This document shows positions 31,183 to 59,397 of a DNA stretch of 64,000 nucleotides, one piece after another. The stretch's first letter is position 1. Every line of letters begins with the position of its first letter. The position numbers and the translations under genes are program-made. Source of the stretch: an uncultured bacterium (GTDB lineage Bacteria; Chloroflexota; Anaerolineae; Anaerolineales; UBA4823); NCBI GenBank assembly GCA_965603285.1, contig CBFDCK010000002.1, forward strand, positions 410 through 64,409, given 5' to 3'. The notes under the pieces are model-generated. The model was given only the letters and a program-made list of their open reading frames with translations, made no database searches and was not told the origin of the DNA.

Positions 31183-31905
31183 GTGAACAATGTACAAGAA
31201 ATACTGAAAATGGTTGACCACTCTCTCTTAAGCCCGTCTCTAACCGATGAACAGTTGAAGGAAGGCTGCGCTGTGGCTGCCCAATACCACACCGCTTCTG
31301 TATGCGTAAAGCCCTACCATGTACGCCAGGCCACCGAATACTTAAAAAGCACAGACGTGCTGGTTGGTGCGGTGATTGGCTTCCCACACGGCAACAGCAG
31401 CATAGCAATCAAAGCAGCCGAAACAGAGCAGGTCATCGCAGACGGCGCGGTTGAAGTCGATATGGTCATTAATATCGGCAAGGTGTTAAGTGAAGATTGG
31501 GACTATGTTGATAAGGAAATTGAAACGATCAGAATAATAACAAAAAAAGCCGGTGCTGCTCTTAAGGTGATCTTTGAAAATGACCTGTTGCCAGATGACC
31601 AATACAAGATCATACTTTGTGAGATTTGCAGTAAACACAGCGCAGATTTTGTTAAAACATCTACTGGTTACAACTACATAAAAGGACCGGATGGAAAATA
31701 TAGCTACCAGGGCGCTACGATGCACGACTTGAAACTCATGCGAGAACATTCCGCCCCCGAAGTTCAAGTAAAAGCAGCCGGTAACTCTGGTTCTTTGGAA
31801 ATCGTCTTGAAATTGCGCGAGATCGGCGTGACCCGCACCGGAACCGGTAAAACGGTTGAATTATATAAAAACGCGGTTGATAAATTTGGTCTTGAGAACA
31901 AGTAG
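31183..31905 (+). CDS. DeoC-type class I aldolase, second paralog
   Basis: GTG start. VDHSLLSP, VCVKP, VKTSTGY. Carries an insertion (NYIKGPDGKYSYQ) after the catalytic lysine segment, relative to the first paralog. Confidence 0.8.
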   Translation: MNNVQEILKMVDHSLLSPSLTDEQLKEGCAVAAQYHTASVCVKPYHVRQATEYLKSTDVLVGAVIGFPHGNSSIAIKAAETEQVIADGAVEVDMVINIGKVLSEDWDYVDKEIETIRIITKKAGAALKVIFENDLLPDDQYKIILCEICSKHSADFVKTSTGYNYIKGPDGKYSYQGATMHDLKLMREHSAPEVQVKAAGNSGSLEIVLKLREIGVTRTGTGKTVELYKNAVDKFGLENK

Positions 31906-31940
31906 AAAATACCAAACACAAGCATCAATTAATATTGTAG

Positions 31941-33000: not shown

Positions 33001-33209
33001 CCAAGTATCAAAAAACACCACTTTATATCTAAACATAATTAATAGTTAAGTAATTGCTGTGGCAGAAAAAAGAACAATATTATCTATGATAGAATCTGCC
33101 AATTACGATGCCAAATGAAGAGGAGGTGGTTGTTGGAAAATGCACACAAGTACGGCCTAAGTAAATCCGTTTCAACAAAAGTATAAAAACTAACTATAAG
33201 GAGAATTGA

Positions 33210-35515: not shown

Positions 35516-37054
35516 TTGAAATCGATATCACTTAATGCCCAACACATCACCAAACATTTTGGAGGAGTGGTCGCCCTCAGGGGTGGCTCGTTAAATGTCA
35601 ACTCTGGTGAAATTCTAGCCCTGGTAGGAGCGAATGGCAGCGGGAAAAGCACCCTGGCAAAGATTATTACCGGGGTTGTCTCTAGAGATTCGGGGGAGAT
35701 CATCTACAACTCAGAACCGGTTGTATTCAATAACCCGGCGGCAGCGCAAAAAGTCGGAGTCACCGCTGTTTACCAGGAACTTAGTTTAGTACCTTCGATG
35801 ACAGTGGCGGAAAACATCTGGCTGGATCACGAGCCGCTGACCAAATTCGGCCAAGTGGATACCCGCAAGACGATCAGCGAAACCAGGAAACTGCTAAAAC
35901 TGTTTGAAGGCACATTTCAGTCAACCCTGAGACCTAATGCTGTGATCGATTCGCTTCCCCCCGATGAAAAACAGATCGTCGAAATCCTCAAAGCCATCAG
36001 CCGCAAACCGGATGTTTTGATCCTGGATGAGGCGACTGCCAGTCTAGACCGCCGCCAGGTTGATTGTTTATTCACCCTGCTCATGGAATGGAAAGATCAG
36101 AACATGGCTTTGATCTTCGTCTCGCACCGTTTGGATGAGATCTTTCGGATCGCAGACCGTGCGGTTGTGTTAAGAAATGGCGATTCTGTGGGGGAAGTAA
36201 AGATCGCTGAAAGCTCACAAACCGAGATCGTTTCCTTAATGGTCGGGCATGAAAGCGGACTAGATAGAACTGAACGCACCACTTTAAAAATATCAGATGA
36301 AATTGCACTGGAGTTAACAGACCTAAAAACGGATGTGCTGGCGGGCGTTAACTTCACTGTAAAAAAAGGTGAACTGGTGGGGATTGGTGGTTTACGCGGC
36401 CAGGGTCAAACAAACCTGCTGCACACCTTGTTCGGCAATAAGCGCTTTGAAGGTCAGATCACACTATTTGGCGAAACAATGTCAGCAAACCATCCCCGCG
36501 CCGCCATGAAAAAGGGTATCGCTCTTGTGCCCGGTGACAGGGCTACCCAAGGCTTGTTATTAATCCGCTCCATATTTGAAAACTTGCATCTGCCCAATTG
36601 GCGGATATATGGTTTCCCTTTAAAACTAACAAAAGCCTATTCTGACGCTAATGGTATTGCCAAAACATTGAACATGGTGATGGAATCACTTGACGCACCG
36701 GTAAGTAGCCTCTCCGGCGGGAACGCCCAAAAAGTGGTGATTGGGAAATGGCTGTTACGCGACCCCAAACTCTTATTGTTGGATGACCCCACTAAGGGTG
36801 TTGATGTTGGTACCAAAGCCGAATTTTACAATCTTCTAGATCGCCTGTGCGAAACAGGAACTACAATCCTCTTCTACAGCTCCGATGACCAGGAATTGGT
36901 TGACCTTTGCCCTCGAGTACTGGTAATGCAGGACGGTTTCATAAAAGCCGACCTCTCTGGCAATAGTCTTACGAAGGCAAACCTGGTTTCCACCAGTATG
37001 GGCGTAGGCTTAGATGCGGTAAATAACAACAAGCCTGGTAAACATGGACAATAA
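35516..37054 (+). CDS. Sugar ABC transporter ATP-binding protein (duplicated ABC domains, CUT2/RbsA-MglA type)
   Basis: 512 aa, TTG start. Walker A GANGSGKST, LSGGNAQK signature and two ABC halves. Confidence 0.9.
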   Translation: MKSISLNAQHITKHFGGVVALRGGSLNVNSGEILALVGANGSGKSTLAKIITGVVSRDSGEIIYNSEPVVFNNPAAAQKVGVTAVYQELSLVPSMTVAENIWLDHEPLTKFGQVDTRKTISETRKLLKLFEGTFQSTLRPNAVIDSLPPDEKQIVEILKAISRKPDVLILDEATASLDRRQVDCLFTLLMEWKDQNMALIFVSHRLDEIFRIADRAVVLRNGDSVGEVKIAESSQTEIVSLMVGHESGLDRTERTTLKISDEIALELTDLKTDVLAGVNFTVKKGELVGIGGLRGQGQTNLLHTLFGNKRFEGQITLFGETMSANHPRAAMKKGIALVPGDRATQGLLLIRSIFENLHLPNWRIYGFPLKLTKAYSDANGIAKTLNMVMESLDAPVSSLSGGNAQKVVIGKWLLRDPKLLLLDDPTKGVDVGTKAEFYNLLDRLCETGTTILFYSSDDQELVDLCPRVLVMQDGFIKADLSGNSLTKANLVSTSMGVGLDAVNNNKPGKHGQ

Positions 37055-38036
37055 ATTCGATCTTCGAGATTGGTGGATAAATTTCAATAAGAAAAACACC
37101 TATGTGTTGGCCTTGGTCATCTTTATTGTGACAACCGCAGCATATCTTGTACTGCAACCAAATGCATTTGATGAAGGTGTACTCACCAGGCTGCTCACCA
37201 GCAACTTCCGCACATGGCTGCCGGTAATATTGTTAGCCATCGGGCAAACAATTGTTATGTTGGGCGGCGGTTTAGATCTGTCATCCGGATCGATGGTTAT
37301 ACTTGGCAATGTAATCTTGGCTATTTCGATCACCTCAAATGAAGAACCGTGGTTCAACCTTATGATCGTTCTCGTCGTGGTTGCGTTTGGTTTGATCGCT
37401 GGATTTTTAAATGGCTTTTTAACTGCATATATGGGTTTGCAGCCGATGATAACTACATTCGCCACCAGTTTTGTTTACAGTGGTTTAGCACTCCTGATCT
37501 TACCAAACCCCTGGGGTAATATCCCCAGAGAATATACAAAAATGTATCGCAACACGACTTGGTTTGGCATTCCCCTCGCCTTGTTCATCATTGCCGCCAT
37601 CCTCGTCATTTGGGCAGTGATCAGGAACCGGAAATATGGACGCTTCCTGTTCGCCGTTGGTGGAAAGGCCGACGCCGCCTATTACACCGGCGTGCGGGTT
37701 ACACGCGTCAGGATCTCCACCTATGTGATCTCAGGCTTCTTTTCTTCACTGGCTGCCATTAGCTACACACTCCTGACAGGCTCAGGCTCTGCCGTCAGCG
37801 GTGCAGAAATGACGCTGACCGCTATCACTGCTGCCATTTTGGGAGGCACATCAATGGCCGGTGGCTCTGGTTCGCTTATTGGTTCTGTCCTTGGTGCCAT
37901 CATTCTGGGGACGATTAAGAATCTGATCTCACTATCAAAGATGGATTCATGGTACCGGGTATTAGTGAACGCTACCGTGATTATTGTGGCGCTTGCTAGT
38001 CCCGGAATCATCAATCTTTTTCGGAGGAAAAAATAA
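37044..38036 (+). CDS. ABC transporter permease (RbsC-like, BPD_transp_2)
   Basis: 330 aa, polytopic. Overlaps the ATPase stop by 11 nt. Confidence 0.9.
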   Translation: MDNKFDLRDWWINFNKKNTYVLALVIFIVTTAAYLVLQPNAFDEGVLTRLLTSNFRTWLPVILLAIGQTIVMLGGGLDLSSGSMVILGNVILAISITSNEEPWFNLMIVLVVVAFGLIAGFLNGFLTAYMGLQPMITTFATSFVYSGLALLILPNPWGNIPREYTKMYRNTTWFGIPLALFIIAAILVIWAVIRNRKYGRFLFAVGGKADAAYYTGVRVTRVRISTYVISGFFSSLAAISYTLLTGSGSAVSGAEMTLTAITAAILGGTSMAGGSGSLIGSVLGAIILGTIKNLISLSKMDSWYRVLVNATVIIVALASPGIINLFRRKK

Positions 38037-38038
38037 TC

Positions 38039-39025
38039 ATGAGTGAAAATATCCAATCCTCTGAAAAGAAGAAATTCACCATATCGCCGCAAGTTACCGC
38101 TCTGCTGCTGGCTTTACTTTTGTTCTTAGCTAGTGGATTTTTGCCCAACGGGTTCAATTCAGTAGATACTGCAATCAACCAGGCTTTTAACATTTTGCGT
38201 CTTTCCTCCTTCCTGGCATTGATCGCCGCCGGGCAGACCTTGGTGATCATAAGTGGTGGTGAAGGTATTGATTTGTCCGCGGGTGCAATCGTTACTATCG
38301 CAGTGTTGATCACCTACAAACTAGTTAACGGTGACAATTCTTTAGTGCTGCCTGTATTATTGTTCGTGATCGCCTGCGGTGCAGCGATTGGATTGATCAA
38401 CGGTCTGGGGATCGCTTACCTTAAGATCCCCCCATTTGTTATGACCCTCGGTATGGCAGGGGTTGTAATAGGCACCTTGCTAGTCGTAACTCGCGGCCTT
38501 TACGATGGAAAAGTTGCGCCGATCATGACAAATATTATCGCTCGCGATCTGGTTTGGGGGATTCCGGGTATGTTGTTCTTGTGGATTATTTTCGGTGTAT
38601 TGATGACGATCTTATTGGAACGCACACGTTATGGTAAACAGCTCTTTGCTATCGGTGTGAACCGACTGACTGCCCGTCTGTCCGGTGTGCGTGTTGATCG
38701 AATGGTAGTCTCCACTTACACCATCGCCGGCGCATTAGCTGCCTTTTCGGGATTCATTCTGGTCGGCTTTACGCAGAACGCCGGTCTGCTGGTTGGCAAC
38801 CAATATCTGTTCCCCTCCATCGCGGCGGTTGCAATCGGCGGCACGCTGCTGTCTGGCGGCAAGGGCAGTTATTTCGGCACGATGGCTGGCGCCATCGTGA
38901 TCCAACTGATCACCAGCTTGCTTACCACCATGCAGTTACCGGAAGCGATCCAACAGATCGTTTACGGCTCGATCCTGATAGTCCTTTTGATCGTTTATGG
39001 ACGTGAGAAAGGAATACGACTGTAA
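38039..39025 (+). CDS. ABC transporter permease (RbsC-like), second subunit
   Basis: 328 aa, polytopic. Starts 3 nt after the previous stop. Confidence 0.9.
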   Translation: MSENIQSSEKKKFTISPQVTALLLALLLFLASGFLPNGFNSVDTAINQAFNILRLSSFLALIAAGQTLVIISGGEGIDLSAGAIVTIAVLITYKLVNGDNSLVLPVLLFVIACGAAIGLINGLGIAYLKIPPFVMTLGMAGVVIGTLLVVTRGLYDGKVAPIMTNIIARDLVWGIPGMLFLWIIFGVLMTILLERTRYGKQLFAIGVNRLTARLSGVRVDRMVVSTYTIAGALAAFSGFILVGFTQNAGLLVGNQYLFPSIAAVAIGGTLLSGGKGSYFGTMAGAIVIQLITSLLTTMQLPEAIQQIVYGSILIVLLIVYGREKGIRL

Positions 39026-39297
39026 TTTCAATCCAAAACCGCAATAAAATCATGGATAAATCACCTCAACTGAAGCCTCGACTTCTTCTCATAATTCAGG
39101 AATTGAGGCTTCAATTGCAGATGTAATTTACATTCTTTAAGACATCCTGGTGTGGGTGGAATGGAAGCCTGATGCTGTAACTGACCCATTTTGACCAAGG
39201 TCTCGATTCCATTAAGCAAACGCCTACATTGGATTTGCCATATACTATTATTCACAACTCAATCATATCCAAACCAGAAGAATCAGAGGAGATAAAA

Positions 39298-40485
39298 ATG
39301 CACAAGATCAGCTTGCTTGGCGCAGGATTCATTGGAATGTTCTACACACAGACGATCAACCGCAGTCGGTCTAAAGACGTAGTCTCGGTAGTTTACAATC
39401 GCACTCCTGAAACAGCCAAAGAATTCGCCAATAAATATAAAATCCCGCACTGGACCGGAGACATGGATGAAGCCATCAACGATCTAGAAACGGACGTTGT
39501 CGTAATCGGGCTGCCAAATTTCGAACACAGGGAAGCAGCCATCAAAGCTGCCAAAGCAGGTAAGGTCGTCTTATGCACAAAACCCTTAGCCCGCTCTGGC
39601 AAAGAGGCTAAAGAGATACTCGATGCCGTTGAAAAAGCCGGTATATTCCACGGTTATTTAGAGGATTTGGTCTACACCCCCAAAACATTAAAAGCGCTGG
39701 CTGCAGTGAAAGCCGGATCGATTGGTCGGGTGCTGTGGACACGCTCAAGAGAAACCCATCCTGGTCCGCACTCACCCTGGTTTATAGATAAAGAGCTTGC
39801 TGGCGGAGGAGCATTGATAGATATGGGCTGCCACTGCGCAGAGATCTGCCGCAGCTTTATCGGCAAAGATGTCAGACCGATGCAAGCCTTCGCTCACCAC
39901 GATACGATGGTACACCCAATCGCTGCCGAGGACTTCTCGATCGGCTTGGTCCGTTTTGAGAACGGCGCGGTCGGGCAGATCGAATCAAGCTGGACATTCA
40001 GAGGCGGCATGGACCTGCGCGATGAAGTATCCGGCACAGAAGGCACGATCTGGCTCAATCACTGGCTGCGTACTGGCTTTGAAATGTTCTCTTCAGGTGG
40101 CGGTCAAGGGTATGTAGCTGAAAAAGCTGAACTAGAGCAGGGCTGGCTTTTCCCGGTCGGCAATGAAGAAGATTCCTTAGGCTACGTTGAAATGTTCAAC
40201 GATATGTTCGACAGCATCGACAATAGCACAAAACCAACAGAAGACTTTTACGATGGATATGTCGTCAACTGCATACTAGATACCCTGTATAAATCCGCAC
40301 AATCCGGAAAATGGGAACCTGTCGAGATCGAAGATTGGCGCGGCGGCAAACATGAAAAAGTGATCACGACCACTGATTATGATGATGAACACATCATTAT
40401 CAAAGAAGAAAGAATGCCTGATGGAAAAATCAAATTGATCCTTCAGCATAAAGAAACCGGCAAAGTAACCCAGATCTTTAAATAA
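39298..40485 (+). CDS. Gfo/Idh/MocA-family oxidoreductase
   Basis: Start taken at [13 protein letters not shown] (ATG 39298, AGAGGAG upstream). VLCTKPLA motif. Has a C-terminal extension of about 50 aa. Confidence 0.85.
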
Positions 40486-40546
40486 TCACTACACTCTAAC
40501 TTGCTGTTCATTGTCAGAAAAATGAATCGCGCTGAGTAAAAATTTC

Positions 40547-41698
40547 ATGAACTCAAAAGAGCGCCTTCAATCTACCTTGTCACACCAAATTCCAGATCGT
40601 ATCCCCTTCGATCTCGGCGGGTCGCCAATGTCTGGTATCCATATCGCTGCCTATGAAAAATTGATCAAATATCTTGGGTTTGACGATCTCGAAACCGAGG
40701 TCTATGACCATATTCAACAACTGGCGCTCCCCCATGAGCAGGTATTAAAACAGCTTGAGGTTGATATCCGGACCATCAGATCAAGCAGCCCGGTTTCTTT
40801 CAAGCTGGATATTCAAAATATTGGAGACTATACCGAATACACGGATGAATGGGGAGTACGTTGGCGGAAGCCTCTTGTGGGTGGTTTTTATTATGACATG
40901 GTTTTCCACCCACTTGAATATGCTCAAAACCTAACGGAGCTCAGGGATTATACCTGGATAAATCCGGATGATGAAAGCCGCTACTCTGGTCTGGAAGAAA
41001 TAGCCGCTAATTACGCCAATAACGGATTAGGTGTAATGCATTGGTCAATTGGACCCGGCGTATCCGAAACACACGCCTGGTTGCGCGGCTATGAAAAATA
41101 CTATACTGATTTTTATTTAAATCCGGATATCGCTGAGACCATTATGTCAAAAGTTGTGGACATCAAGATCGCATACTGGAAAAACGCCTTATCCAGATCA
41201 GGCAAACACATAGATGTGGTCGTTGAAGCGGACGATTTGGCTGGACAGAACGGGCCGTTGATCTCCCCCAAGGCGTACCGTCAGTTCATTAAACCCCAGC
41301 ATACCCGCCTTTTTTCGGCCATCAAAAAGATCGCGCCACATGTGAAAATATTTTTCCACAGCTGTGGTGCAGTCCACGACTTTATTGGTGATTTCATCGA
41401 AAGTGGCATTGACATTCTCAACCCCGTGCAAAAATCGGCGACGGGAATGGACTTGCAGCAGTTAAAGCAAGAATTTGGTAAAGATGTCGTTTTTTGGGGT
41501 GGCGGTGTCGATACCCAAAGGGTATTCGATGGCGATGATATCAAGGCGGTCAGAGTAGATGTGCGCCAGAACATCACAACCCTGAAACCAGGCGGAGGAT
41601 TTGTATTCACACCTGTGCATAACACCCAGGCCAATGTACCCCCACAGAATTACATGGCAATGTGGGAAACGCTCCAAGAAGAAGGTCTTTACCGGTAA
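40547..41698 (+). CDS. Uroporphyrinogen-decarboxylase (URO-D) superfamily protein, MtaA/CmuA-like
   Basis: 383 aa. N-terminal ERLQSTLSHQIPDRIPFD. TIM-barrel-like length. HSCG (H-x-C) motif at KIFFHSCGAV. Not in a heme-biosynthesis context. Confidence 0.7.
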   Translation: MNSKERLQSTLSHQIPDRIPFDLGGSPMSGIHIAAYEKLIKYLGFDDLETEVYDHIQQLALPHEQVLKQLEVDIRTIRSSSPVSFKLDIQNIGDYTEYTDEWGVRWRKPLVGGFYYDMVFHPLEYAQNLTELRDYTWINPDDESRYSGLEEIAANYANNGLGVMHWSIGPGVSETHAWLRGYEKYYTDFYLNPDIAETIMSKVVDIKIAYWKNALSRSGKHIDVVVEADDLAGQNGPLISPKAYRQFIKPQHTRLFSAIKKIAPHVKIFFHSCGAVHDFIGDFIESGIDILNPVQKSATGMDLQQLKQEFGKDVVFWGGGVDTQRVFDGDDIKAVRVDVRQNITTLKPGGGFVFTPVHNTQANVPPQNYMAMWETLQEEGLYR

Positions 41699-41709
41699 AA
41701 AGAGTAAAC

Positions 41710-42549
41710 ATGTACAGCAAACGAAATTATCTGAACAAAAGCTATATCGAGATCATCAATCCAAACATTACACGCGGCAAGATCAAGTTCGCCATTTTTG
41801 ATTTTGACGGCACTATCTCCTTGATCCGCGAGGGTTGGCAACAGATCATGATCTCCATGATGGTTGATATCCTTATGCAAATACCAGAGCATGAAAGCCG
41901 GGACGAGATCGAAATAATCGTGCGTACCTATGTAGCCAATACAACAGGGAAACAAACCATCTACCAGATGATCCGCTTAGCGGAAGAGATCGAAAAAAGA
42001 GGCAGCGTGCCCCAAGAACCGCTGGCATATAAAAATCTATATCACGATCTGCTGATGAAGCGCATCATTGAACGGCTGGACGGCTTGCGCAGCGGTGATC
42101 TCCAACCAGAAGATTGGGCTGTGCCCGGCGCATTAGATATGCTGGCTGTTCTGAATCAGTATGAGGTCACTCACTTCCTGGCTTCCGGCACTGATGAAAA
42201 ATACGTGTTAGATGAAGCCGATCTTTTAGGCGTTTCGAAATACTTCGTCGGTATATATGGCGCATTAGATGATTACAAGAATTTCTCAAAAAAGATAGTC
42301 ATTCAAAAGATCATCAAAGACAACCAACTCAGCGGTCCCGAACTGGTCGGTTTCGGTGATGGTTACGTGGAAATTGAAGACACCAAAGCGGTCGGCGGTA
42401 TTGCCGTTGGGGTTGCCACCAATGAAACCGAACGCCAAGGTATTGATGAATGGAAGCGTGAGCGGTTAATCTCTTCTGGCGCAGATATCATTATGCCTGA
42501 TTTCCGCCAATATCAATATCTTATTAATTATTTAATGTTGGAGAAGTGA
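41710..42549 (+). CDS. HAD-superfamily hydrolase (phosphatase-like)
   Basis: Start taken at MYSKRNY (ATG 41710). Motif I FDFDGTIS, a capped HAD layout, and the late motif GFGDGYVE. Confidence 0.7.
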   Translation: MYSKRNYLNKSYIEIINPNITRGKIKFAIFDFDGTISLIREGWQQIMISMMVDILMQIPEHESRDEIEIIVRTYVANTTGKQTIYQMIRLAEEIEKRGSVPQEPLAYKNLYHDLLMKRIIERLDGLRSGDLQPEDWAVPGALDMLAVLNQYEVTHFLASGTDEKYVLDEADLLGVSKYFVGIYGALDDYKNFSKKIVIQKIIKDNQLSGPELVGFGDGYVEIEDTKAVGGIAVGVATNETERQGIDEWKRERLISSGADIIMPDFRQYQYLINYLMLEK

Positions 42550-42551
42550 AC

Positions 42552-43526
42552 ATGCCTTACCCCATTTTTGACCGCTCGAAATTGACTTTACTCTCGCTAT
42601 CAGATCGGGAACATGACCTATCCATGGATGTAATCCTAGACTTATCAGATGTGATCCCCACTTTTGAGAACGGGAATTTAGAAACTCTCGCCAAGCGCAT
42701 CGTTAAAGCCCACCAGCGCGGAGCAGCTGTGATCTTTTTAATGGGCGCCCATGTGATTCGCAGCGGCGTATCTCGTTTTCTGATCGACCTGATGGAAAAA
42801 GGAATGATCGACCTGATCGGATGCAACGGGGCAGTCACCATTCACGATATGGAATTTGCCATGATCGGCAAAACGACTGAGAGTGTTGCCAGGTATATTC
42901 AGGTCGGGCAGTTTGGTCTGTGGAAAGAGACCGGTCGGGTAAATGATGCCGCTAAATTCGCTTACGAGCATGGTCTTGGTCTGGGTGAATCAATTGGCAA
43001 AATGATCCATGACAACCCCGACGAATTCCCAAATAGCGATATAAGTGTGTTGGCAACCGGCTACGGCCTGGGCATCCCAATCACCGTGCACGTTGGCATT
43101 GGACAAGACATCGTTCACGAACACCCGAACTTTGACGGGGCTGCTTACGGCGCGGCCAGCTACCGCGACTTCCTGACGTTCGTCAACTGCGTCGAAAACC
43201 TGGAGGGAGGCGTGATGCTCAATATTGGTACAGCCGTGATGGGACCAGAAGTGTACCTGAAGGCATTGGCAATGGCCCGCAACGTAGCGATGCAGGAGAA
43301 TCGAGTGATTAAACATTTCACCACAGGCGTTCTTGATATAGTCGACCTGGGAGAAAACCCAGGAAAAGAAGCCCCAAAAACCGACGCCGTTTATTATTTC
43401 CGGCCATTTAAAACAGTCTTAGTGCGTACCGTTGCCGATGGTGGTGAGAGTTATTATGTCAGAGGAAATCACCGGGTAACCGTTTCCAATCTGCACCGTT
43501 TGATTTTAGAAAACCTTCAGGCGTGA
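42552..43526 (+). CDS. Deoxyhypusine-synthase-like (DHS-like Rossmann fold) family protein, function unknown
   Basis: The segment FLMGAHVIRSGVSRFLIDLMEKGMIDLIGCNGAVTIHDMEF resembles the DHS core (G..SSG.R......L......VD..VTT.G..E.D). GIPITVHVGIG resembles IPVFCPA.TD.S.G. The assignment is tentative. GTG 42546 is an alternative start. Confidence 0.45.
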   Translation: MPYPIFDRSKLTLLSLSDREHDLSMDVILDLSDVIPTFENGNLETLAKRIVKAHQRGAAVIFLMGAHVIRSGVSRFLIDLMEKGMIDLIGCNGAVTIHDMEFAMIGKTTESVARYIQVGQFGLWKETGRVNDAAKFAYEHGLGLGESIGKMIHDNPDEFPNSDISVLATGYGLGIPITVHVGIGQDIVHEHPNFDGAAYGAASYRDFLTFVNCVENLEGGVMLNIGTAVMGPEVYLKALAMARNVAMQENRVIKHFTTGVLDIVDLGENPGKEAPKTDAVYYFRPFKTVLVRTVADGGESYYVRGNHRVTVSNLHRLILENLQA

Positions 43527-43530
43527 GATT

Positions 43531-44583
43531 ATGGAAAACAAAAGGCTTGAAAAAATCCTTACATCTTTCCCGGAAGGAAAGATCGCCGTTCTGGGTGATT
43601 TCTTCCTCGACCTGTACATATCATTGGATCGGTCCTTATCCGAGCTTTCACTGGAAACCAATTTAGAAGCATTCCAGGCTGTGGACATCAAAGACCTTCC
43701 AGGCGCTGCGGGCGTGGTAACCAATAACCTGGTCGCTCTAGGAGCCAGCACATCTGCGATCGCATACACCGGTGATGACGGCAACGGCTACATGCTGCGT
43801 AAAGAACTGAGCCAACGGGGCGTTAACATCGAACACCTGCTGCAATCTACAGAACGCTTCACGCCTACTTATATAAAACCGATGATGACCGAAGTGGCTG
43901 GCTCCACGATTGAGCTCAACCGCATCGATGTCAAGAACCGCACACCTAATTCCTTAGAACTGGAAAATGAGATCATCCAGCGGATTAGAGTTGCCATTAA
44001 GGATCATGATGGCATCTTGGTCGCTGAGCAGGTCAAAGATGATAGCTGTAGTGTGCTCTCGCCGCGTGTGCGCATGGCGCTGGCGGATATATCGCTAGCG
44101 AATCCCGACAAAGTATTTATTGTAGATTCCAGGCATTTCACCGCCAAATATGAGCATGTCTCGCTCAAAGTGAATTTATTCGAAGCCATTAAAGCCGCTG
44201 GCGAGCTTAATGCTCGATTCCATACTCAAAAGAAAGCCGACAAGCTGGAAACAGCCATAATCTGCCAGCGCTTGCTATGGAAAAAGGTCAAAAGACCAAT
44301 TTTCATCACCCTTGGATCAAAAGGCATCAGCGGCTACGCAGATGGGGAAGATTTTTATCATCCCGGATATCACACCACTGGACCAATCGATATCGTCGGC
44401 GCTGGCGATTCGGTACTGGCTGGCTGCGGGGTATCCCTATGTGCCGGCGCTATGCCTGAGGAAGCTGCCTATATCGGCAATCTGATCGGTTCGATCACCA
44501 TTGAACAAATCGGCACGACCGGTATTGCCACGCCAGAACAGCTGCTTGAAAGACATTACGAATACCAAAAACAAAACCACTAA
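43531..44583 (+). CDS. PfkB-family carbohydrate kinase, HldE/RfaE kinase-domain-like
   Basis: 350 aa. N-terminal VLGDFFLDLY...PGAAGVVTNNLVALGA resembles heptose-7-P kinases. PfkB signature DIVGAGDSV. Confidence 0.8.
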   Translation: MENKRLEKILTSFPEGKIAVLGDFFLDLYISLDRSLSELSLETNLEAFQAVDIKDLPGAAGVVTNNLVALGASTSAIAYTGDDGNGYMLRKELSQRGVNIEHLLQSTERFTPTYIKPMMTEVAGSTIELNRIDVKNRTPNSLELENEIIQRIRVAIKDHDGILVAEQVKDDSCSVLSPRVRMALADISLANPDKVFIVDSRHFTAKYEHVSLKVNLFEAIKAAGELNARFHTQKKADKLETAIICQRLLWKKVKRPIFITLGSKGISGYADGEDFYHPGYHTTGPIDIVGAGDSVLAGCGVSLCAGAMPEEAAYIGNLIGSITIEQIGTTGIATPEQLLERHYEYQKQNH

Positions 44584-44607
44584 CTTCATGCAAAAGGAAA
44601 ATCAAAT

Positions 44608-45177
44608 ATGAAAGCTTATCAAGATATCATCGTTGACTACATTGATGACCTAAAATCCGTTTTGGACCAACTCTCCAAACCGGATCTCCTGGCGATCATC
44701 AACGCACTGGCAAAAGCCCGCCAGGATGAAAAAACTATCTACATTTGCGGCAACGGCGGCAGCGCGTCTACCGCCAGCCACATGGTTTGTGACCTCTCAA
44801 AGAACACCCGTAAAGATGAAGCTAAACGCCTCAAAGTGATCGGATTATCCGATAACATAGCCTTAATGACCGCCTATGCCAATGACGAAGGCTATGACCG
44901 AATTTTTGCCGAACAGATCATATCCTTGATCCAGCCGGGTGATGTGCTGCTGGCTATCAGCGGCAGCGGAAACTCTCCTAATGTGTTGCTCGGTGTAGAA
45001 ACCGCCAAGCAAATCGGCGCCACAACAATCGGGCTGACCGGTTTTCAAGGCGGACAGCTTATAGAGTTGGTCGATATTTGCCTGATTGTTCCCTACAACA
45101 GTCTGGAACAGATCGAAGATGTGCATTTGATTATCAACCACATCCTGACCATCAGCCTTGGGCAGGGCAAAGCATAA
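44608..45177 (+). CDS. SIS-domain sugar-phosphate isomerase (GmhA/DiaA-like)
   Basis: 189 aa. YICGNGGSASTASHMVCDL and ISGSGNSPNV motifs. Confidence 0.8.
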   Translation: MKAYQDIIVDYIDDLKSVLDQLSKPDLLAIINALAKARQDEKTIYICGNGGSASTASHMVCDLSKNTRKDEAKRLKVIGLSDNIALMTAYANDEGYDRIFAEQIISLIQPGDVLLAISGSGNSPNVLLGVETAKQIGATTIGLTGFQGGQLIELVDICLIVPYNSLEQIEDVHLIINHILTISLGQGKA

Positions 45178-45185
45178 AAAAGAAA

Positions 45186-46319
45186 TTGAACGCCCGCCAA
45201 CGTGTCATCCAGACCTTAGACCACCAACTGCCCGACCGCGTCCCTCTGGCAATTTGGGGTGGTCCGTATGGCATTGTGGACGAACTCTACTTCAAGCTGC
45301 TGCCCTTATTGGGTTTAAGCGAGCCCGTCGCACCCTTCCGCCAAGGCCACACCGTCAATCATATCGATGACCGCGTCTTGAAAAAACTGGGCGCTGACAT
45401 TCGCTACGTTTGGCCGGGAGCCTCGCCTACCAGCCCGCGTTACCCAACTGATGACCCTGATATCTTCCTGGATGGCTTCGGTCAGAAGTGGATCCAAACC
45501 TTCCCATACTTCACCGCCACAGATGGGTTGCTAAAACAAGCCCATTCAATCTCGGAAATCGATGAACTGGTCAATTGGCCGGATACCAGCAAACCCGAAT
45601 GGACTGCAGGGGTAGCTGAGCGATCGTGCATACTGGCAAAAGACGGAGAATACTACATTGCCGCCCGCATGGTCGTCTCGCATGGTCCCTTTCAGCTTGC
45701 CTGTGACCTACGCGGCGCTGCCGAATTCATGCTGGATATGGTGATGAATCCAGATTTCGCCGCCGCCCTGCTGGACAAAGTCACCACTACCATCTGCGGC
45801 TTGACCGATGCTTACATGCAATCGGGAGGCCAATATTATGACCTGATCGAACTTCCCGGCGATGACTATGCCAGCAACGTCAACCTGATTATCTCCCCCA
45901 AGATGTTCCGGGATTTCATCAAACCCTGCATTAAACGCATGGTGGAGACTATCCGCGCACACAAGTCAGATATCAAGATCATGTTGCACTCGGATGGCGC
46001 AATTCAAAAATTGATCCCAGATTTCATTGAACTCGGGATCGATGTGCTGCACCCACTGGAACCTGTTTCTGGTATAGATGTAGCTGCCGTAAAACACGAA
46101 TTCGGGCAGCAGATCGCTTTCATTGGCGGTATCGATATTTCCAAAGCCATGCCGGGTAATCTGCAAGACGTGTGTACAGACGTGGATCGCTGTATTCGGG
46201 ACCTCGCTCCCAGGGGAGGGTACATAATGGCACCCTGCAATCATTTACAAGCTGATGTGTCTCCCGAAAATGTGATTGAAATGTTCAGTTACGCGTGCGA
46301 GAACGGTAGATATAAATAG
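45186..46319 (+). CDS. URO-D superfamily protein, second paralog
   Basis: TTG 45186 gives MNARQRVIQTLDHQLPDRVP, co-linear with the N-terminus of the first paralog. HSDG replaces HSCG. Has the C-terminal motif APCNH. Confidence 0.7.
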   Translation: MNARQRVIQTLDHQLPDRVPLAIWGGPYGIVDELYFKLLPLLGLSEPVAPFRQGHTVNHIDDRVLKKLGADIRYVWPGASPTSPRYPTDDPDIFLDGFGQKWIQTFPYFTATDGLLKQAHSISEIDELVNWPDTSKPEWTAGVAERSCILAKDGEYYIAARMVVSHGPFQLACDLRGAAEFMLDMVMNPDFAAALLDKVTTTICGLTDAYMQSGGQYYDLIELPGDDYASNVNLIISPKMFRDFIKPCIKRMVETIRAHKSDIKIMLHSDGAIQKLIPDFIELGIDVLHPLEPVSGIDVAAVKHEFGQQIAFIGGIDISKAMPGNLQDVCTDVDRCIRDLAPRGGYIMAPCNHLQADVSPENVIEMFSYACENGRYK

Positions 46320-46734: not shown

Positions 46735-46809
46735 CGGTCCCGACGGGATTCGAACCCGCGATCTCGGCCTTGACAGGGCCGCGTGTTAAACCAGCTACAC
46801 TACGGGACC
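46735..46809 (-). tRNA. tRNA-Asp (anticodon GUC)
   Basis: Cloverleaf folded by hand: acceptor GGTCCCG/CGGGACC, D-arm GTGT..ACAC, anticodon stem CGGCC/GGCCG with loop CTGTCAA, T-arm GCGGG-TTCGAAT-CCCGT, discriminator G. It is followed by CC (the full CCA is not encoded). Confidence 0.9.
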
Positions 46810-48921: not shown

Positions 48922-50190
48922 TTACAGTTTATGAAGATTTTGTGCAGCGATGAAAGACAAACCGTTTTCTGTTAATGCCCAAGCAGTCTTGTTTGTTGCC
49001 TCAAATTTATCCATAAAGTTCAATCTGAGATATTCCCAATCTCCCGAGTCGATAATTTCCTGTTTCTCCCGGAAGTAATCAAGGATATCAGAGGGATGTT
49101 GTCGTTTCTCATCTATCTCTGGATCAGCGCCTTCGTGTTTGGCAGAGATATTTGCCACGTGACCGGCAATTTCTACTAATTCGTCTCGGCGGTTATATGG
49201 TTGGCGAACGATAGACTTATAAGTTTCAACAATGTGGTGTTCAAAACGGACCACATCCTCAAAGCCCAGCGATTTTCTAAATTGGGCAGTGATCTCCATC
49301 GTCTCGTTGTTGATGGAATTGCTCCAGTTAAACCCGATCAATGGAGAAGTGCCATCATCGCGAGCAAACAACTTCGCACCTATCAGCGTCCATAACCCGG
49401 CATATGGATTATCGTTTCCCATATATACAGATATTTTAAATTCGATATCAATACCCAGGCGGTAAAGTAAATAACCTATAAACACAGTTCCTGGATTTAC
49501 ATTTAGTACCTGTCGTGTTCCGTAATTGGTGTAGTAATACAGGAATTCATCAAGCCATTTAAGCGCATATTCGTTAGGTTGACCTACACCCCCAAAATAT
49601 CCCGTGATTGTTTCAGGTCCACCCAAGTGTATATTCGAACCATCCGTGCCCTTTGTATCAAGTGTTTCAACAAATGAAGCGCCAATGATCTGCATAGCTG
49701 CTGCAACCGCTGGTAAATCTCCATCGGTCTCTTGTTCCTTCATTCTGCGTACCCTGATATACCGTCCCGGCATTATTTTTCCCTCAGCAATTGCTCGTTG
49801 CGCAATATCTATTAAATAGGGGAAGTATTGATATGCACTGATTTCAAGGGTGACCGCAAAATCATCTGCGAATTTTGTGGAGTCCGCTCGTTCATCCAAT
49901 ACTTTGCGGCGATATTCAGGTACGCTGATAAAAGCGTCATTATCACGCTGTTCCTCAAGCCAATATAAATCGTCCAGATAATCAGGTTTAATTTTTTCTA
50001 CTTTATTTAACAAATTAGGTAATTGGCGCGCCTGTTCAGCTTGCTGATTGATTTCCTCGGGTGTACCGTATTTCGCTACTACTTCGAGAAATTCGGAAAT
50101 CACTCTCATGTCCGGATCAAGCAGAACATTATTGATTTCGTCTAATCTTTCATACGGTATTCTTAACAACTGTTGTAAATTTTCACCCAT
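48922..50190 (-). CDS. Conserved-looking hypothetical protein (422 aa), no family recognised
   Basis: Long ORF with even composition, 16 nt upstream of the dehydrogenase gene on the same strand. GGAGG lies upstream of the ATG. Confidence 0.6.
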   Translation of the reverse strand: MGENLQQLLRIPYERLDEINNVLLDPDMRVISEFLEVVAKYGTPEEINQQAEQARQLPNLLNKVEKIKPDYLDDLYWLEEQRDNDAFISVPEYRRKVLDERADSTKFADDFAVTLEISAYQYFPYLIDIAQRAIAEGKIMPGRYIRVRRMKEQETDGDLPAVAAAMQIIGASFVETLDTKGTDGSNIHLGGPETITGYFGGVGQPNEYALKWLDEFLYYYTNYGTRQVLNVNPGTVFIGYLLYRLGIDIEFKISVYMGNDNPYAGLWTLIGAKLFARDDGTSPLIGFNWSNSINNETMEITAQFRKSLGFEDVVRFEHHIVETYKSIVRQPYNRRDELVEIAGHVANISAKHEGADPEIDEKRQHPSDILDYFREKQEIIDSGDWEYLRLNFMDKFEATNKTAWALTENGLSFIAAQNLHKL

Positions 50191-51342: not shown

Positions 51343-52266
51343 TTACTGTTCGAGATAACTATCCGCATAAATCACTTTATTCAATAACACCTGAACTGTT
51401 TTCCATATCGCAACCTGCTCCGGATCATTCATATCAAAATCGTCAAATGCAGGTTCTTCCATTGCAGCGATACGGTCGACAATCGTTATATATGCCTTTC
51501 CTACAGGAGTACTGTCATCACGTACCTCAATAATACGAATGGTCTCCCTCAACTGCTCATCGAAAGGATTTGCAATCATTGTCTGTAATCCAACACCCAT
51601 TAACATAGCACAGTAAACCCTGTCAATGAGTGGTCGATTCTGGTCGGGCACAGAATTCGAAACATTTGAAAGACCTACCGAAATTGCCGGTGGTGGATCC
51701 CACGCAAATTGCAGAGTCCGGACTGCTTCAAGAAGCTCAGGTGCGTACTCCTGGCAGCCCGAAACTGTCAAAACTAGAGGATCAATTATCAAGTCCTCAA
51801 TTGGAAAATCGATTTCTAACATCCTTGGTATCAATTTCTCAAGCGCAATGGTCACCCGCTCATCTGCGCTAACAGGAATTCCGCTCTTTCCCATAGTAAG
51901 AGCAATCAGTTTTGTATTGTATTCCTTTGCCAGAAGAGGTACTTTTTCAAGCCTCTCCGCTTCAGCAGATGTCGAATTTATGATTGGTTGCGCCTTGGTG
52001 ACTTTCTTAAGTCCAGCTTCAATCCCCATTAAATTGGTGCTATCAAAACTCAAGGGAACATCCACAACGGTTTCAACAGACTCGACCATCCAAGGAAAGA
52101 CCTCCTCCCAATCTTTCTTACGAGGCCCAAGATTAAGATCTATAGCTTGAGCCCCTGCCTCAACCTGCTTTAGAGCCAGTTCCATGAAGAATTCTCGATC
52201 TCTTAACTTTAGTGCTTCCTTTACTTTTTCTGAAATGATGTGAATATTTTCGCCTAAAATATACAT
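51343..52266 (-). CDS. acsE: Methyltetrahydrofolate:corrinoid/iron-sulfur protein methyltransferase
   Basis: 307 aa pterin-binding (DHPS-like) TIM barrel. MYILGENIH, AQAIDLNLGP. Located inside the acs cluster. Confidence 0.85.
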   Translation of the reverse strand: MYILGENIHIISEKVKEALKLRDREFFMELALKQVEAGAQAIDLNLGPRKKDWEEVFPWMVESVETVVDVPLSFDSTNLMGIEAGLKKVTKAQPIINSTSAEAERLEKVPLLAKEYNTKLIALTMGKSGIPVSADERVTIALEKLIPRMLEIDFPIEDLIIDPLVLTVSGCQEYAPELLEAVRTLQFAWDPPPAISVGLSNVSNSVPDQNRPLIDRVYCAMLMGVGLQTMIANPFDEQLRETIRIIEVRDDSTPVGKAYITIVDRIAAMEEPAFDDFDMNDPEQVAIWKTVQVLLNKVIYADSYLEQ

Positions 52267-52280
52267 GGGTGACCATCCTT

Positions 52281-54230: not shown

Positions 54231-54267
54231 ATATATAAATTTTGGCTTAGCTTTTCTCCCCTATTCT

Positions 54268-59372: not shown

Positions 59373-59397
59373 AAACTACCTCCTACATACCTATTAT

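Follow-up and report, generated by a model that had tools for sequence, protein, structure and literature searches.

A sugar-uptake gene set adjoining a widespread, uncharacterised sugar-phosphate cassette in an Anaerolineae genome

The seven genes at 39298-46319 of the analysed DNA (a 64-kb stretch of an Anaerolineae genome, hereafter the window) combine two separate units, namely, a sugar-uptake set with two URO-D-like enzymes and a four-gene cassette encoding HAD, GSU2086-family, PfkB and SIS proteins. The HAD/GSU2086/PfkB/SIS group is a widespread, uncharacterised sugar-phosphate cassette, probably paralogous to, yet distinct from, the front end of the ADP-heptose pathway (GmhA, HldE kinase and GmhB). 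The features concerned are listed below; revised gene limits were set from ortholog lengths and the sequence.

21624-22616, second ROK kinase
27082-28131, - strand, ROK sugar kinase, oriented divergently to GntR (PF00480, 170.8 bits)
28306-29085, + strand, GntR/UTRA regulator (Pfam/NCBIfam)
29142-30110, + strand, AP_endonuc_2 protein (Pfam/NCBIfam)
30134-31165, + strand, Gfo oxidoreductase (Pfam/NCBIfam)
31183-31905, + strand, DeoC aldolase (Pfam/NCBIfam)
31940-33001, inserted IS30 element, inverted repeats seen
33210-35372, + strand, CUT2 binding protein, tandem-duplicated
35516-37054, + strand, ABC ATPase
37044-39025, + strand, two permeases
39298-40485, + strand, Gfo/Idh/MocA oxidoreductase (GfoB), 395 aa
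40547-41698, + strand, URO-D-like protein 1, 383 aa
41710-42549, + strand, HAD protein, 279 aa from ATG, matching orthologs
42552-43526, + strand, GSU2086-family protein, ATG start, 324 aa as in orthologs
43531-44583, + strand, PfkB kinase, 350 aa
44608-45177, + strand, single-domain SIS isomerase, 189 aa
45186-46319, + strand, URO-D-like protein 2, 377 aa, TTG start 8 nt past the SIS stop

Gene layout and the uptake unit

As the first-pass annotation had stated, the ORFs of the seven + strand genes fill 39298-46319 with gaps of 2-61 nt (61, 11, 2, 4, 24 and 8 nt, in order), and a 272-nt gap lies at 39026-39297. The start of a transcription unit after this gap, which it had proposed, is probably not correct, as GfoB belongs with the upstream transporter genes: at loci L001, L004-L006, L085, L086 and L093, an ortholog of 78-97% identity comes immediately after the second permease gene, and the permease-GfoB spacing of 29-58 nt in relatives makes GfoB part of the transporter unit. 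The gene order of the upstream string was the same, without the IS element, in the Anaerolineae loci L001 and L004-L006, the ROK-GntR arrangement was kept in L002, and four Bacillota loci shared the order of ABC, permease, Gfo and AP_endonuc_2 genes ahead of the cassette. Neither promoter-like sites (16 versus 12.5 +/- 3.7 in shuffles) nor terminator-like sites (7 versus 7.8 +/- 2.7) were enriched; thus, sequence signals give no operon boundaries.

The complete seven-gene arrangement recurred only in one close relative, L093. The idea of a single seven-gene module holds for HAD, GSU2086, PfkB and SIS, which are strongly co-conserved, and fails for all seven together. The uptake-type context was confirmed, as were the family calls, with Pfam matches at or above the gathering score for GFO_IDH_MocA, both URO-D proteins, HAD_2, PfkB and SIS_2; the "DHS-like" call holds by predicted fold, the Pfam match being ArgZ-like_C_2nd (31.2 bits). 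It was also correctly noted that the window contains no nucleotidyltransferase of either common type and that no glycosyltransferase occurs among its ORFs scanned against Pfam; no already characterised pathway matching the gene set was found. GfoB has the Pfam GFO_IDH_MocA and C-terminal domains; it scored below the cutoffs of levoglucosan dehydrogenase (131 bits, cutoff 650) and IolG (121 bits, cutoff 355).

The URO-D-like proteins matched PF01208 with 72.8 (URO-D 1) and 96.5 bits (URO-D 2), were 31% identical to each other and scored far below the equivalog cutoffs of both HemE and MtaA. The AF2 model of URO-D 1 (pLDDT 94.3) had its best fold matches in MtaA (4ay8, E = 4.6e-14) and HemE, while URO-D 2 gave no sequence match in the PDB. 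Among 49 loci of the URO-D 1 family, CUT2 genes were found at 20, a second URO-D gene at 19, a B12-binding protein at six and the cassette at one; apart from the window, L093 alone had URO-D 2 at its position by the cassette. URO-D 1 is thus an MtaA-like accessory gene tied to the sugar transporter, and URO-D 2 is a lineage-specific addition.

The GSU2086-family protein and its cassette partners

The protein encoded at 42552-43526 matched NF052581 (GSU2086 family) with 373.6 bits against a cutoff of 250. The family comprises 2145 clusters at 50% identity, at least 590 stretches carrying it were confirmed among 600 candidates listed from species-representative genomes, and the literature and family libraries give no function for it. 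Neighbourhoods were counted at 58 informative loci, each with a flank of at least 2.5 kb. HAD, GSU2086 and PfkB were same-strand neighbours at 45 of these in at least eight phyla, among them Chloroflexota, Armatimonadota, Planctomycetota, Acidobacteriota, Bacillota, Latescibacterota and Acetothermia, with HAD directly upstream of GSU2086 on the same strand at 46 loci and PfkB directly downstream at 49. Other neighbours were SIS (23 loci), ROK (21, within 4 kb), Gfo (16), ABC transporter (8), DeoC (5) and URO-D (3) genes. GSU2086 was the best-conserved member (50-57% identity between phyla; HAD about 50%, SIS 32-41%, PfkB 26-41%) and was found fused to its partners as HAD+GSU2086, GSU2086+PfkB, PfkB+HAD+GSU2086 and SIS+GSU2086, as well as in GSU2086+CTP_transf_like and ARMT1 phosphatase+CTP_transf_like+GSU2086 proteins.

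The AF2 model of the protein (pLDDT 86.9) most closely matched LOR/SDH (3c2q), the ArgZ/AgrE C-terminal domain and deoxyhypusine synthase (DHS), which gives it a predicted dinucleotide fold of the DHS/ornithine-cyclodeaminase (OCD) type. The family profile aligned with AgrE (E = 3.5e-8) over the GAH...NGAxxIHDxE segment, and the motif A[IV]HD[IF]E is common to the family and the OCD domain of AgrE/ArgZ. Invariant His, Asp and Glu positions of the family include H69, H100, D101, H182, D188, D208 and D264.

By best profile, the enzymology is of the heptose type, as had been suggested, the top matches being rfaE_dom_I for PfkB and gmhA for SIS. The kinase (PF00294, 78.3 bits) scored 134.7 bits against TIGR02198 rfaE_dom_I (E = 3.7e-39, cutoff 345), its only match in a PDB sequence search was the heptose-7-phosphate kinase HldA (4e84, E = 8e-7), and it is distantly related to the kinase domain of RfaE/HldE. 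The isomerase (SIS_2, 76.0 bits) scored 121.3 bits against TIGR00441 gmhA (E = 3.5e-35, cutoff 209) and aligned with GmhA structures at E = 5e-27. Its signature, however, is GNGGSAxTAsHxxxD ... IEDxHxxxxH versus the canonical GmhA GNGGSAADAQHxAxE ... IQExHxxxxH, D replacing E68, E replacing Q175 and a different residue replacing D61; this non-GmhA signature was common to same-strand SIS genes adjoining GSU2086 in both context types, and the protein is a paralogue of GmhA whose active-site signature has changed. The HAD protein (HAD_2, 29.8 bits) matched no NCBIfam family, and contained motif I (DFDGT) and many invariant cap residues; a profile search of the PDB found only remote sugar-phosphate phosphatases (COG0546 and TM_1254). 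It is phosphatase-like, of subfamily IA (C1 cap) and not of the GmhB type. Since the kinase, isomerase and phosphatase fall below the HldE, GmhA and GmhB equivalog cutoffs, the SIS signature is changed and the HAD is IA-type, the earlier statement that they reproduce the sedoheptulose-7-phosphate route describes an analogy, not membership.

The ROK kinase at 27082-28131 (183.7 bits against ROK_glcA_fam, cutoff 260) probably provides a fifth cassette function, absent from the gene set described earlier. The second ROK kinase is an equally good candidate, and both are 24-34% identical to cassette ROK proteins.

Desulfobacterota loci, which are glycan-synthesis clusters, contained a [CTP_transf_like-PfkB] gene, GSU2086 and usually SIS (missing in L082), followed downstream by SDR, DegT, transketolase-like, methyltransferase and radical-SAM genes; HAD was absent from five of the six loci of this type (about 12-17 kb of DNA per locus). 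The Geobacter GSU2086 gene has hldE and gmhA as its two neighbours (GSU2085-2087), and its disruption caused a defect of growth on electrodes in Tn-seq, as did disruption of these two neighbours and of LPS-related genes listed in the same table (PMC5585712).

Proposed route and its alternatives

We hold with roughly even confidence that two units, each conserved independently of the other, meet in the window within one co-directional sugar operon of about 18 kb, from GntR to URO-D 2, with a sugar-phosphate route paralogous to that of heptose. The first unit (CUT2 ABC transporter, Gfo/Idh/MocA, AP_endonuc_2, DeoC aldolase and both URO-D-like proteins) would import and pre-process a sugar, and the second would consist of HAD, GSU2086, PfkB and SIS, a ROK kinase gene lying close by. 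A ketose or aldose omega-phosphate, supplied by the ROK kinase or by central metabolism, would be isomerised by the GmhA-like SIS protein and phosphorylated at the anomeric carbon by the RfaE-like PfkB to a 1,omega-bisphosphate, from which the IA-type HAD would remove one phosphate. What would set the route apart is the GSU2086 step, most likely epimerisation or isomerisation of a phosphorylated sugar by transient oxidation. LOR/SDH-type OCD and DHS enzymes use a bound dinucleotide such as NAD+ for transient oxidation, and the GSU2086 enzyme may likewise hold a tightly bound dinucleotide, NAD+ or conceivably a nickel-pincer dinucleotide; a nickel-pincer adenine dinucleotide is reported for TIGR00300-type enzymes in work cited in PMC13524815. 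In Desulfobacterota, GSU2086 and SIS would pair with an adenylyltransferase-kinase for glycan synthesis, whereas the coupling of the cassette to uptake in this Anaerolineae genome would make it a salvage or conversion route for an imported sugar. We infer how the steps are ordered, that phosphorylation is at the anomeric carbon, that GSU2086 has a redox or epimerase role, and which cofactor and substrate are used. In favour of the two-unit reading are the NF052581 membership, the adjacency, the fusions, the Desulfobacterota loci, the SIS signature, the conservation of GSU2086, the fold and motif link and the association of URO-D 1 with CUT2 genes rather than with the cassette. Against it, GSU2086 stands on its own at four Armatimonadota loci, SIS is lost or truncated in the close relatives L002 and L085, and type A and type B kinases, only about 26% identical, may not be orthologous. 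A phosphatase is unusual within a catabolic operon; the known fold relatives DHS and OCD oxidise C-N rather than C-OH bonds, and the locus offers no evident amine. In addition, the lack of HAD in five of six Desulfobacterota-type loci places GSU2086 where a phosphatase would be expected.

The last point is the basis of an unlikely alternative, in which GSU2086 is a non-homologous replacement of GmhB, acting on the 1,7-bisphosphate from the RfaE-like kinase in a variant ADP-heptose or heptose-1-phosphate pathway. The Desulfobacterota/Geobacter trio of HldE-like protein, GSU2086 and SIS does correspond to the canonical set with only GmhB missing, repeated fusions join GSU2086 to an adenylyltransferase, the next step of that pathway, and its invariant His/Asp/Glu residues could form a metal site. 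However, a HAD phosphatase adjoins GSU2086 at 46 of the 58 loci and is fused to it in some, two phosphatases within the three-domain ARMT1 phosphatase-nucleotidyltransferase-GSU2086 protein are hard to explain, no phosphatase was present among the PDB fold matches listed, the HD.E motif also occurs in dinucleotide-dependent cyclodeaminases, and diderm genomes could encode GmhB elsewhere.

It is likewise improbable that the whole string forms a single pathway that breaks down a rare, methylated or cyclitol-type sugar after import, in which URO-D proteins would demethylate, Gfo and AP_endonuc_2 oxidise and isomerise, ROK, PfkB and SIS phosphorylate and isomerise, DeoC cleave, and GSU2086 and HAD serve as catabolic helpers. 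The GntR/UTRA, CUT2 transporter, two Gfo, IolE-like AP_endonuc_2 and DeoC (above the deoC cutoff) genes are consistent with it, as is the collinearity of the cassette with ABC, Gfo and AP_endonuc_2 in Anaerolineae and the four Bacillota loci; the gene families resemble those of the frl (FrlR, FrlD, FrlB, FrlC) and iol operons. Against it, in most phyla no transporter lies near the cassette (ABC at 8 of 58 loci), the Desulfobacterota clusters are biosynthetic, URO-D and the cassette are not co-conserved, DeoC accompanies the cassette at only 5 of 58 loci, and the 50-57% identity of GSU2086 across contexts argues for a single conserved reaction.

A canonical heptose nucleotide-sugar pathway for an envelope glycan, with nucleotidyltransferase and glycosyltransferases encoded elsewhere and the DHS-like and URO-D proteins as passengers, agrees with the top named families (RfaE domain I, GmhA) and is nevertheless very improbable, given the kinase and isomerase scores (134.7/345 and 121.3/209 bits), the family-wide substitution of GmhA catalytic and zinc-ligand positions, the non-GmhB HAD, the lack of a nucleotidyltransferase in the window and, near the 78 non-Desulfobacterota loci, of any other than one GlgC-like gene (L034, opposite strand, at a distance of about 7 kb), and the conservation and frequent fusion of GSU2086, which show that it is not a passenger.

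Comparison with known systems

The URO-D proteins share their fold and PF01208 match with MtaA/MtbA, the methyltransferase components of O-demethylases and HemE. The HSCG of URO-D 1 aligns with the zinc motif HICG of MtaA, whereas the third zinc cysteine is absent, the family does not conserve the HxC cysteine, and there is an additional beta-rich insert. Some family members adjoin B12-binding proteins and further URO-D paralogues, as in corrinoid methyltransferase systems, although the window has no corrinoid protein and the typical neighbours are CUT2 sugar transporters.

The upstream half of the operon resembles catabolic modules that combine Gfo/Idh/MocA with AP_endonuc_2 (inositol iol, levoglucosan lgd) and the frl operon for fructoselysine; the features in common are the GntR/UTRA regulator, the CUT2 transporter, the IolG-like and levoglucosan-dehydrogenase-like oxidoreductases, the IolE-like TIM barrel, the PfkB kinase and the SIS protein. 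However, all matches fall well short of their equivalog cutoffs, IolD, IolB and IolA are absent among the window ORFs scanned, the SIS protein is GmhA-like and not FrlB-like, and the aldolase is of the DeoC type.

GSU2086 is similar in predicted fold to the LOR/SDH-type OCD domain (ArgZ/AgrE, TIGR00300/3c2q) and DHS (Foldseek E = 8e-8 to 1e-5, TM about 0.5) and shares with the ArgZ/AgrE domain the N-terminal nucleotide-loop segment bearing A[IV]HD[IF]E. It differs in that identity is just 12-16%, the sequence-level match spans about 75 residues, scores against the OCD/DHS equivalogs are negligible (15-25 bits), and its partners are sugar-phosphate enzymes and not enzymes of amino acids or polyamines.

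With the ADP-heptose pathway, the cassette shares the SIS isomerase/PfkB kinase/phosphatase logic and the top profiles; in Desulfobacterota, moreover, GSU2086 has a bifunctional HldE-like gene on one side and an SIS gene on the other. It departs from this pathway in its three sub-threshold enzymes with the changed SIS signature and subfamily-IA HAD, in having no accompanying adenylyltransferase outside Desulfobacterota, in the frequent presence of a ROK kinase, which suggests free-sugar input, and in its additional, strictly conserved enzyme with the predicted DHS fold, GSU2086.

Layout of the seven-gene stretch and its surroundings

The segment 39298-46319 is filled by seven co-directional ORFs of the + strand, the start codons of which were set from ortholog lengths and from a reading of the DNA. 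These genes and two features of the surroundings are listed below.

Genes of the seven-gene stretch and two neighboring features (positions, strand, description)
39298-40485, + strand: GfoB, Gfo/Idh/MocA oxidoreductase
40547-41698, + strand: URO-D-like protein 1 (PF01208)
41710-42549, + strand: HAD protein (Pfam HAD_2)
42552-43526, + strand: GSU2086-family protein (NF052581)
43531-44583, + strand: PfkB kinase, RfaE/HldE-kinase-like
44608-45177, + strand: SIS isomerase, GmhA-like
45186-46319, + strand: URO-D-like protein 2 (TTG start, PF01208)
21624-26577, - strand: second, paralogous sugar gene set (ROK, AP_endonuc_2, Gfo, DeoC, Gfo), adjoining the operon
46735-46809, - strand: tRNA gene (Rfam, 69.3 bits), inside the 711-nt gap after URO-D 2

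The gaps between the seven genes are, in order, 61, 11, 2, 4, 24 and 8 nt, and the family calls made for the seven proteins in the first-pass annotation were each at or above the Pfam gathering score. The 272-nt gap upstream of them is real; the unit that had been thought to start after it probably starts at a GntR gene. The seven genes close a longer string of co-directional genes, which begins with a GntR/UTRA regulator and continues with AP_endonuc_2, Gfo, DeoC (above the deoC equivalog cutoff), IS30, a CUT2 binding protein, an ABC ATPase and two permeases, in this order. A ROK kinase gene is divergent from the GntR gene. Promoter and terminator scans of the region gave counts not above the shuffled expectation and were therefore left unused as evidence, and a search with Rfam for riboswitches and other RNA regulators over the whole window matched the tRNA alone.

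The IS30-family element (31940-33001) is located between the DeoC and binding-protein genes and interrupts the long sugar operon. Its transposase is 319 aa long with HTH_38 and rve domains, its terminal inverted repeats are 22 nt (86% complementary), and the element is missing from the syntenic loci L001 and L004-L006 of other genomes. The CUT2 periplasmic binding protein (33210-35372) contains an internal tandem duplication with two Peripla_BP_4 domains (1014-nt repeat, ~91% identity) and, upstream of it, a Pro/Ala/Glu-rich linker repeat with a 15-nt period; the duplication is seemingly also present in the close relative L085. The GC content at 22-46 kb is 0.45-0.51, whereas in the 1-22 kb flank it is lower (0.40-0.44).

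Beyond the tRNA gene are glutamate dehydrogenase, an unknown gene, panB and a Wood-Ljungdahl CODH/ACS cluster, which are convergent to the seven genes and unrelated to them. A 422-aa ORF (48922-50190, - strand) between the CBS-domain glutamate dehydrogenase and panB had no Pfam match at E 1e-3. The Wood-Ljungdahl cluster (51343-63828, - strand) encodes a pterin-binding methyltransferase, two RACo-type corrinoid activators, a CdhD-like subunit, CODH and a 1228-aa ACS fused to a CdhD-like domain, while hyp hydrogenase-maturation genes are found at 1.8-7.5 kb. Together, the cluster and the hyp genes point to an anaerobic and possibly acetogenic organism of the Anaerolineae type.

Conservation of the cassette and of the uptake unit

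The cassette exists and is widespread. A genome scan (one per species), in which at least 590 of 600 candidate stretches were confirmed as GSU2086 family, gave at least 80 loci in Chloroflexota, Armatimonadota, Planctomycetota, Acidobacteriota, Bacillota, Latescibacterota, Acetothermia and Desulfobacterota. The window proteins were used to search the flanks of the 58 loci that extend at least 2.5 kb to either side. In these, HAD was found directly upstream and PfkB directly downstream of GSU2086 on the same strand (46 and 49 loci, respectively), and both flanked it in 45 loci. SIS and ROK kinase genes were nearby in 23 and 21 of the 58 loci, and Gfo, ABC transporter, DeoC and URO-D genes in 16, 8, 5 and 3, respectively. 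Consequently, the conserved unit consists of HAD, GSU2086 and PfkB, which ROK and SIS often accompany; a ROK kinase belongs to the cassette, both of the ROK genes in the window being candidate orthologs. In several Anaerolineae, SIS, ROK, HAD, GSU2086 and PfkB are arranged consecutively in this order. Between phyla, GSU2086 is best conserved (identity 50-57%), with about 50% for HAD, 32-41% for SIS and 26-41% for PfkB. Two close relatives have no intact SIS gene behind PfkB: L002 lacks it, and L085 keeps a 42-aa remnant; several genes of L002 are split by frameshifts, possibly through assembly errors or decay.

GSU2086 also occurs as HAD+GSU2086, GSU2086+PfkB and PfkB+HAD+GSU2086 fusions, in fusions of both orders with SIS and with CTP_transf_like, and in a triple fusion of ARMT1-like phosphatase+CTP_transf_like+GSU2086. 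By these fusions, its functional partners are isomerase, kinase, phosphatase and adenylyltransferase, the four enzymes that make up a sugar-nucleotide front end.

Close relatives of the window (83-91% identity) carry the order PBP, ABC, two permeases, GfoB, AP_endonuc_2, URO-D, HAD, GSU2086, PfkB, SIS, and the full window arrangement, including URO-D 2, was found in the metagenomic contig L093 (88-98% identity). Among the 49 loci of at least 6 kb that carry a relative of URO-D 1, CUT2 ABC genes were nearby in 20, a second URO-D paralogue in 19, a LacI regulator in 7, and Gfo and a B12-binding protein in 6 each; the GSU2086 cassette was nearby in only one (L093). Five further loci of this family with Pfam-labelled neighbors were all in carbohydrate contexts, namely, GH2, GH116, aldose-epimerase-like, AP_endonuc_2, LarA-like or mandelate-racemase-like genes, or sugar ABC transporters. 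In the relatives, GfoB begins 29-58 nt after the permease gene. This spacing and the neighbors of URO-D 1 assign GfoB and the URO-D genes to the uptake unit and not to the cassette. Thus, the seven genes, which had been proposed as one module, are the junction of two independently conserved modules: HAD, GSU2086 and PfkB do recur together, whereas the seven-gene set recurs only in L093.

Both URO-D proteins belong to the PF01208 superfamily (72.8 and 96.5 bits) and are far below the cutoffs of the HemE equivalog TIGR01464 (19.4 and 21.5 bits vs. 303) and of the MtaA/CmuA model TIGR01463 (about 47 bits vs. 235). The MtaA zinc triad, His-x-Cys ... Cys, is incomplete in both: URO-D 1 has H-S-C of the zinc site but Gly at the third ligand position, and URO-D 2 has H-S-D in place of His-x-Cys. 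The zinc-site Cys is not invariant across the URO-D1 family. The model of URO-D 1 (pLDDT 94.3) is about equally similar to MtaA and HemE and contains an extra beta-rich insert; the URO-D1-like family (loci L088-L172) is widespread, with a length of about 382 aa and the same type of insert, and the searches made here found no characterised close relative. A link of the URO-D genes to the corrinoid genes (CFeSP, MeTr, RACo) at 51-64 kb was rejected: the latter belong to the convergent, minus-strand Wood-Ljungdahl cluster, the tRNA gene and three other genes lie between, and tblastn with two B12-binding proteins found no small B12-binding corrinoid protein in the window, beside URO-D or elsewhere.

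Cassette enzymes and the heptose pathway

The heptose assignment of the first-pass annotation holds as an analogy, the best models being RfaE/HldE kinase and GmhA, but not as a demonstrated identity, the scores being below the cutoffs. PfkB scored 134.7 bits with TIGR02198 (HldE/RfaE kinase domain; cutoff 345), and RfaE is still by far its nearest subfamily (E 3.7e-39 vs. 1e-13 or weaker in other PfkB subfamilies, HldE models aside). SIS scored 121.3 bits with TIGR00441 (GmhA; cutoff 209) and 95-121 bits with the other GmhA equivalogs (cutoffs 265-320). The window SIS was aligned to GmhA structures and then compared with all SIS genes near GSU2086 at the positions of the catalytic and zinc-ligand residues of GmhA, namely, His64, Glu68, Gln175 and His183, plus Asp61 (B. 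pseudomallei numbering). Both histidines are kept, while Glu68 is replaced by Asp, Gln175 by Glu and Asp61 by Thr. The first two substitutions recur in same-strand SIS genes beside GSU2086 in both types of context, and Asp is never found at position 61 of the other cassette SIS proteins, which have Thr, Met, Asn, Ala, Ile or Ser there. Opposite-strand canonical GmhA genes in three Terriglobia loci retain the standard residues. This pattern indicates that the isomerase co-diverged with GSU2086, and it speaks for a substrate or a stereochemical outcome other than that of GmhA. In these Terriglobia loci (L036, L059 and L060), the canonical GmhA gene and a ROK gene are located, on the opposite strand, directly downstream of the HAD-GSU2086-PfkB triad; therefore, the cassette can adjoin a true GmhA in place of its own SIS variant.

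HAD matched no NCBIfam family, only Pfam HAD_2 and Hydrolase, and the only PDB entries reached by its profile were distant ones, sugar-phosphate phosphatases of HAD subfamily IA (COG0546 and TM_1254); it is thus not a GmhB-type enzyme (HAD subfamily IIIA, histidinol-phosphatase-like). Many Arg, Lys and Tyr residues of its cap are invariant, which would be consistent with a bisphosphate substrate. CTP_transf_like (HldE domain II/HldC type) had no match in the window or in 78 non-Desulfobacterota loci and was present only in L070, L079 and L082-L084, HldE-type nucleotidyltransferases being confined to Desulfobacterota-type loci. The one NTP_transferase motif near non-Desulfobacterota loci was in a GlgC-like gene of L034, ~7 kb off and on the opposite strand. 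As had been noted from the sequence, no nucleotidyltransferase was found in the window; the parallel statement on glycosyltransferases holds for the window ORFs scanned, among which there was none. Canonical ADP- or GDP-heptose biosynthesis was rejected as a membership on the sub-threshold scores, the altered SIS signature, the wrong HAD subfamily and the lack of a nucleotidyltransferase. The profile and residue comparisons show the cassette members to be paralogs of heptose-pathway enzymes standing outside those families.

In Desulfobacterota, a CTP_transf_like-PfkB protein of about 510 aa is followed by GSU2086, usually with an adjoining SIS gene. The companions are SDR epimerase/dehydratase, DegT aminotransferase, transketolase-like, methyltransferase, radical-SAM and O-antigen-type ABC genes, and these loci are clearly devoted to glycan or sugar biosynthesis. 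In Geobacter, GSU2086 has hldE (GSU2085) on one side and gmhA (GSU2087) on the other, and an electrode-growth defect was seen by Tn-seq for each of these genes (PMC5585712). A purely catabolic role of the gene string fits in part: the window and the Bacillota loci agree with it, whereas the biosynthetic clusters of Desulfobacterota and the many cassettes that stand alone do not.

GSU2086 family and its possible role

The window protein matched NF052581 over profile positions 2-299 of 301 (373.6 bits vs. the curated cutoff of 250, E 8.3e-112). The NCBIfam name "GSU2086 family" is a bare locus tag, and no published function was found in the literature searched, the Geobacter Tn-seq table being the only paper returned. 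Clustered at 90%, the family has at least 8000 members; at 50% identity it forms 2145 clusters. Among its invariant residues are H69, H100, D101, E112, H182, D188, D208, K239, N246, D264, R286 and K289. In the cultured Anaerolineae strain Ornatilinea apprima P3M-1 (L014), the HAD-GSU2086-PfkB triad is accompanied by a second, longer GSU2086-containing ORF on the opposite strand (38% identity; coordinates 3837-5537 and 9101-12031).

The AlphaFold model of the window protein (pLDDT 86.9, pTM 0.88) finds its closest PDB folds in the LOR/SDH protein 3c2q, in the cyclodeaminase domain at the C-terminus of AgrE/ArgZ and in deoxyhypusine synthases (E 8e-8 to 1e-5, TM about 0.5, 12-16% identity); no solved structure was found nearer than such a remote fold match. 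The model thereby shows a predicted dinucleotide fold of the DHS/OCD type. Accordingly, the earlier "DHS-like" call stands at the level of the fold but fails in sequence, with 15.7 bits against the NF002630 cutoff of 364 and no PF01916 match. A GAH...NGAxxIHDxE segment is common to the GSU2086 family and the NAD-binding AgrE/ArgZ cyclodeaminase domain (profile E 3.5e-8), the sequence-level alignment to these relatives spanning the first nucleotide-loop segment only. For TIGR00300 relatives of the fold, a nickel-pincer adenine dinucleotide has recently been reported, as cited in PMC13524815. Since the fold relatives include such cyclodeaminases, the GSU2086 family may likewise use an unusual cofactor.

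In the proposed mechanism, SIS would isomerise a ketose or aldose omega-phosphate, the RfaE-like kinase would phosphorylate the anomeric position, HAD would take off one phosphate, and GSU2086 may perform a cofactor-dependent transient-oxidation step, i.e., an epimerisation or isomerisation. The main rival, by which GSU2086 is an analog of GmhB, draws on the Desulfobacterota-type loci, in five of six of which no HAD was found within the DNA of the locus, but is weakened by HAD near-universally adjoining or being fused to GSU2086 and by the ARMT1-phosphatase fusions. An anti-phage defence role (a Sir2-like reading of the DHS fold, or other) was rejected, none of the seven proteins matching a PADLOC model.

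According to the boldest form of the transient-oxidation reading, which is considered unlikely, GSU2086 would be a new class of dinucleotide-dependent (NAD+ or nickel-pincer) sugar-phosphate epimerases/isomerases defining an unrecognised heptose/hexose branch, and the URO-D proteins would be metal- or corrinoid-dependent sugar-modifying enzymes. If true, this branch would be present in hundreds of bacterial species of at least eight phyla and would lead to an unusual anomeric sugar phosphate, with which Desulfobacterota would build glycans and Chloroflexota and Bacillota would salvage imported sugars, while the transporter-linked URO-D-like proteins could be, e.g., anaerobic O-demethylases of methylated sugars or cyclitols. 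Bacteria supply their envelope glycans through sugar-1-phosphate routes, that of heptose among them, and intermediates of the ADP-heptose type act as signals in innate immunity. The strict conservation of a fifth, entirely uncharacterised enzyme and its frequent fusion to the partner enzymes imply that textbook sugar-phosphate chemistry is still short of one step. The family occurs in the cultured organisms Geobacter sulfurreducens, which is genetically manipulated, Fervidibacter sacchari PD1 and O. apprima P3M-1, the last being a convenient experimental organism. Given the large family, its cultured members and the Geobacter fitness phenotype, the question is directly testable. The CUT2-linked URO-D-like family is a second, independent lead to uncharacterised carbohydrate chemistry in anaerobes.

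The core intuition of the first-pass annotation was borne out in that the cassette is real and uncharacterised, with one component of unassigned chemistry, and the literature searched held no characterised pathway that matches it. The ADP-heptose pathway has a heptose-1-P adenylyltransferase, and no gene for one was found in the window; the finding is a real, uncharacterised variant of a known pathway type.
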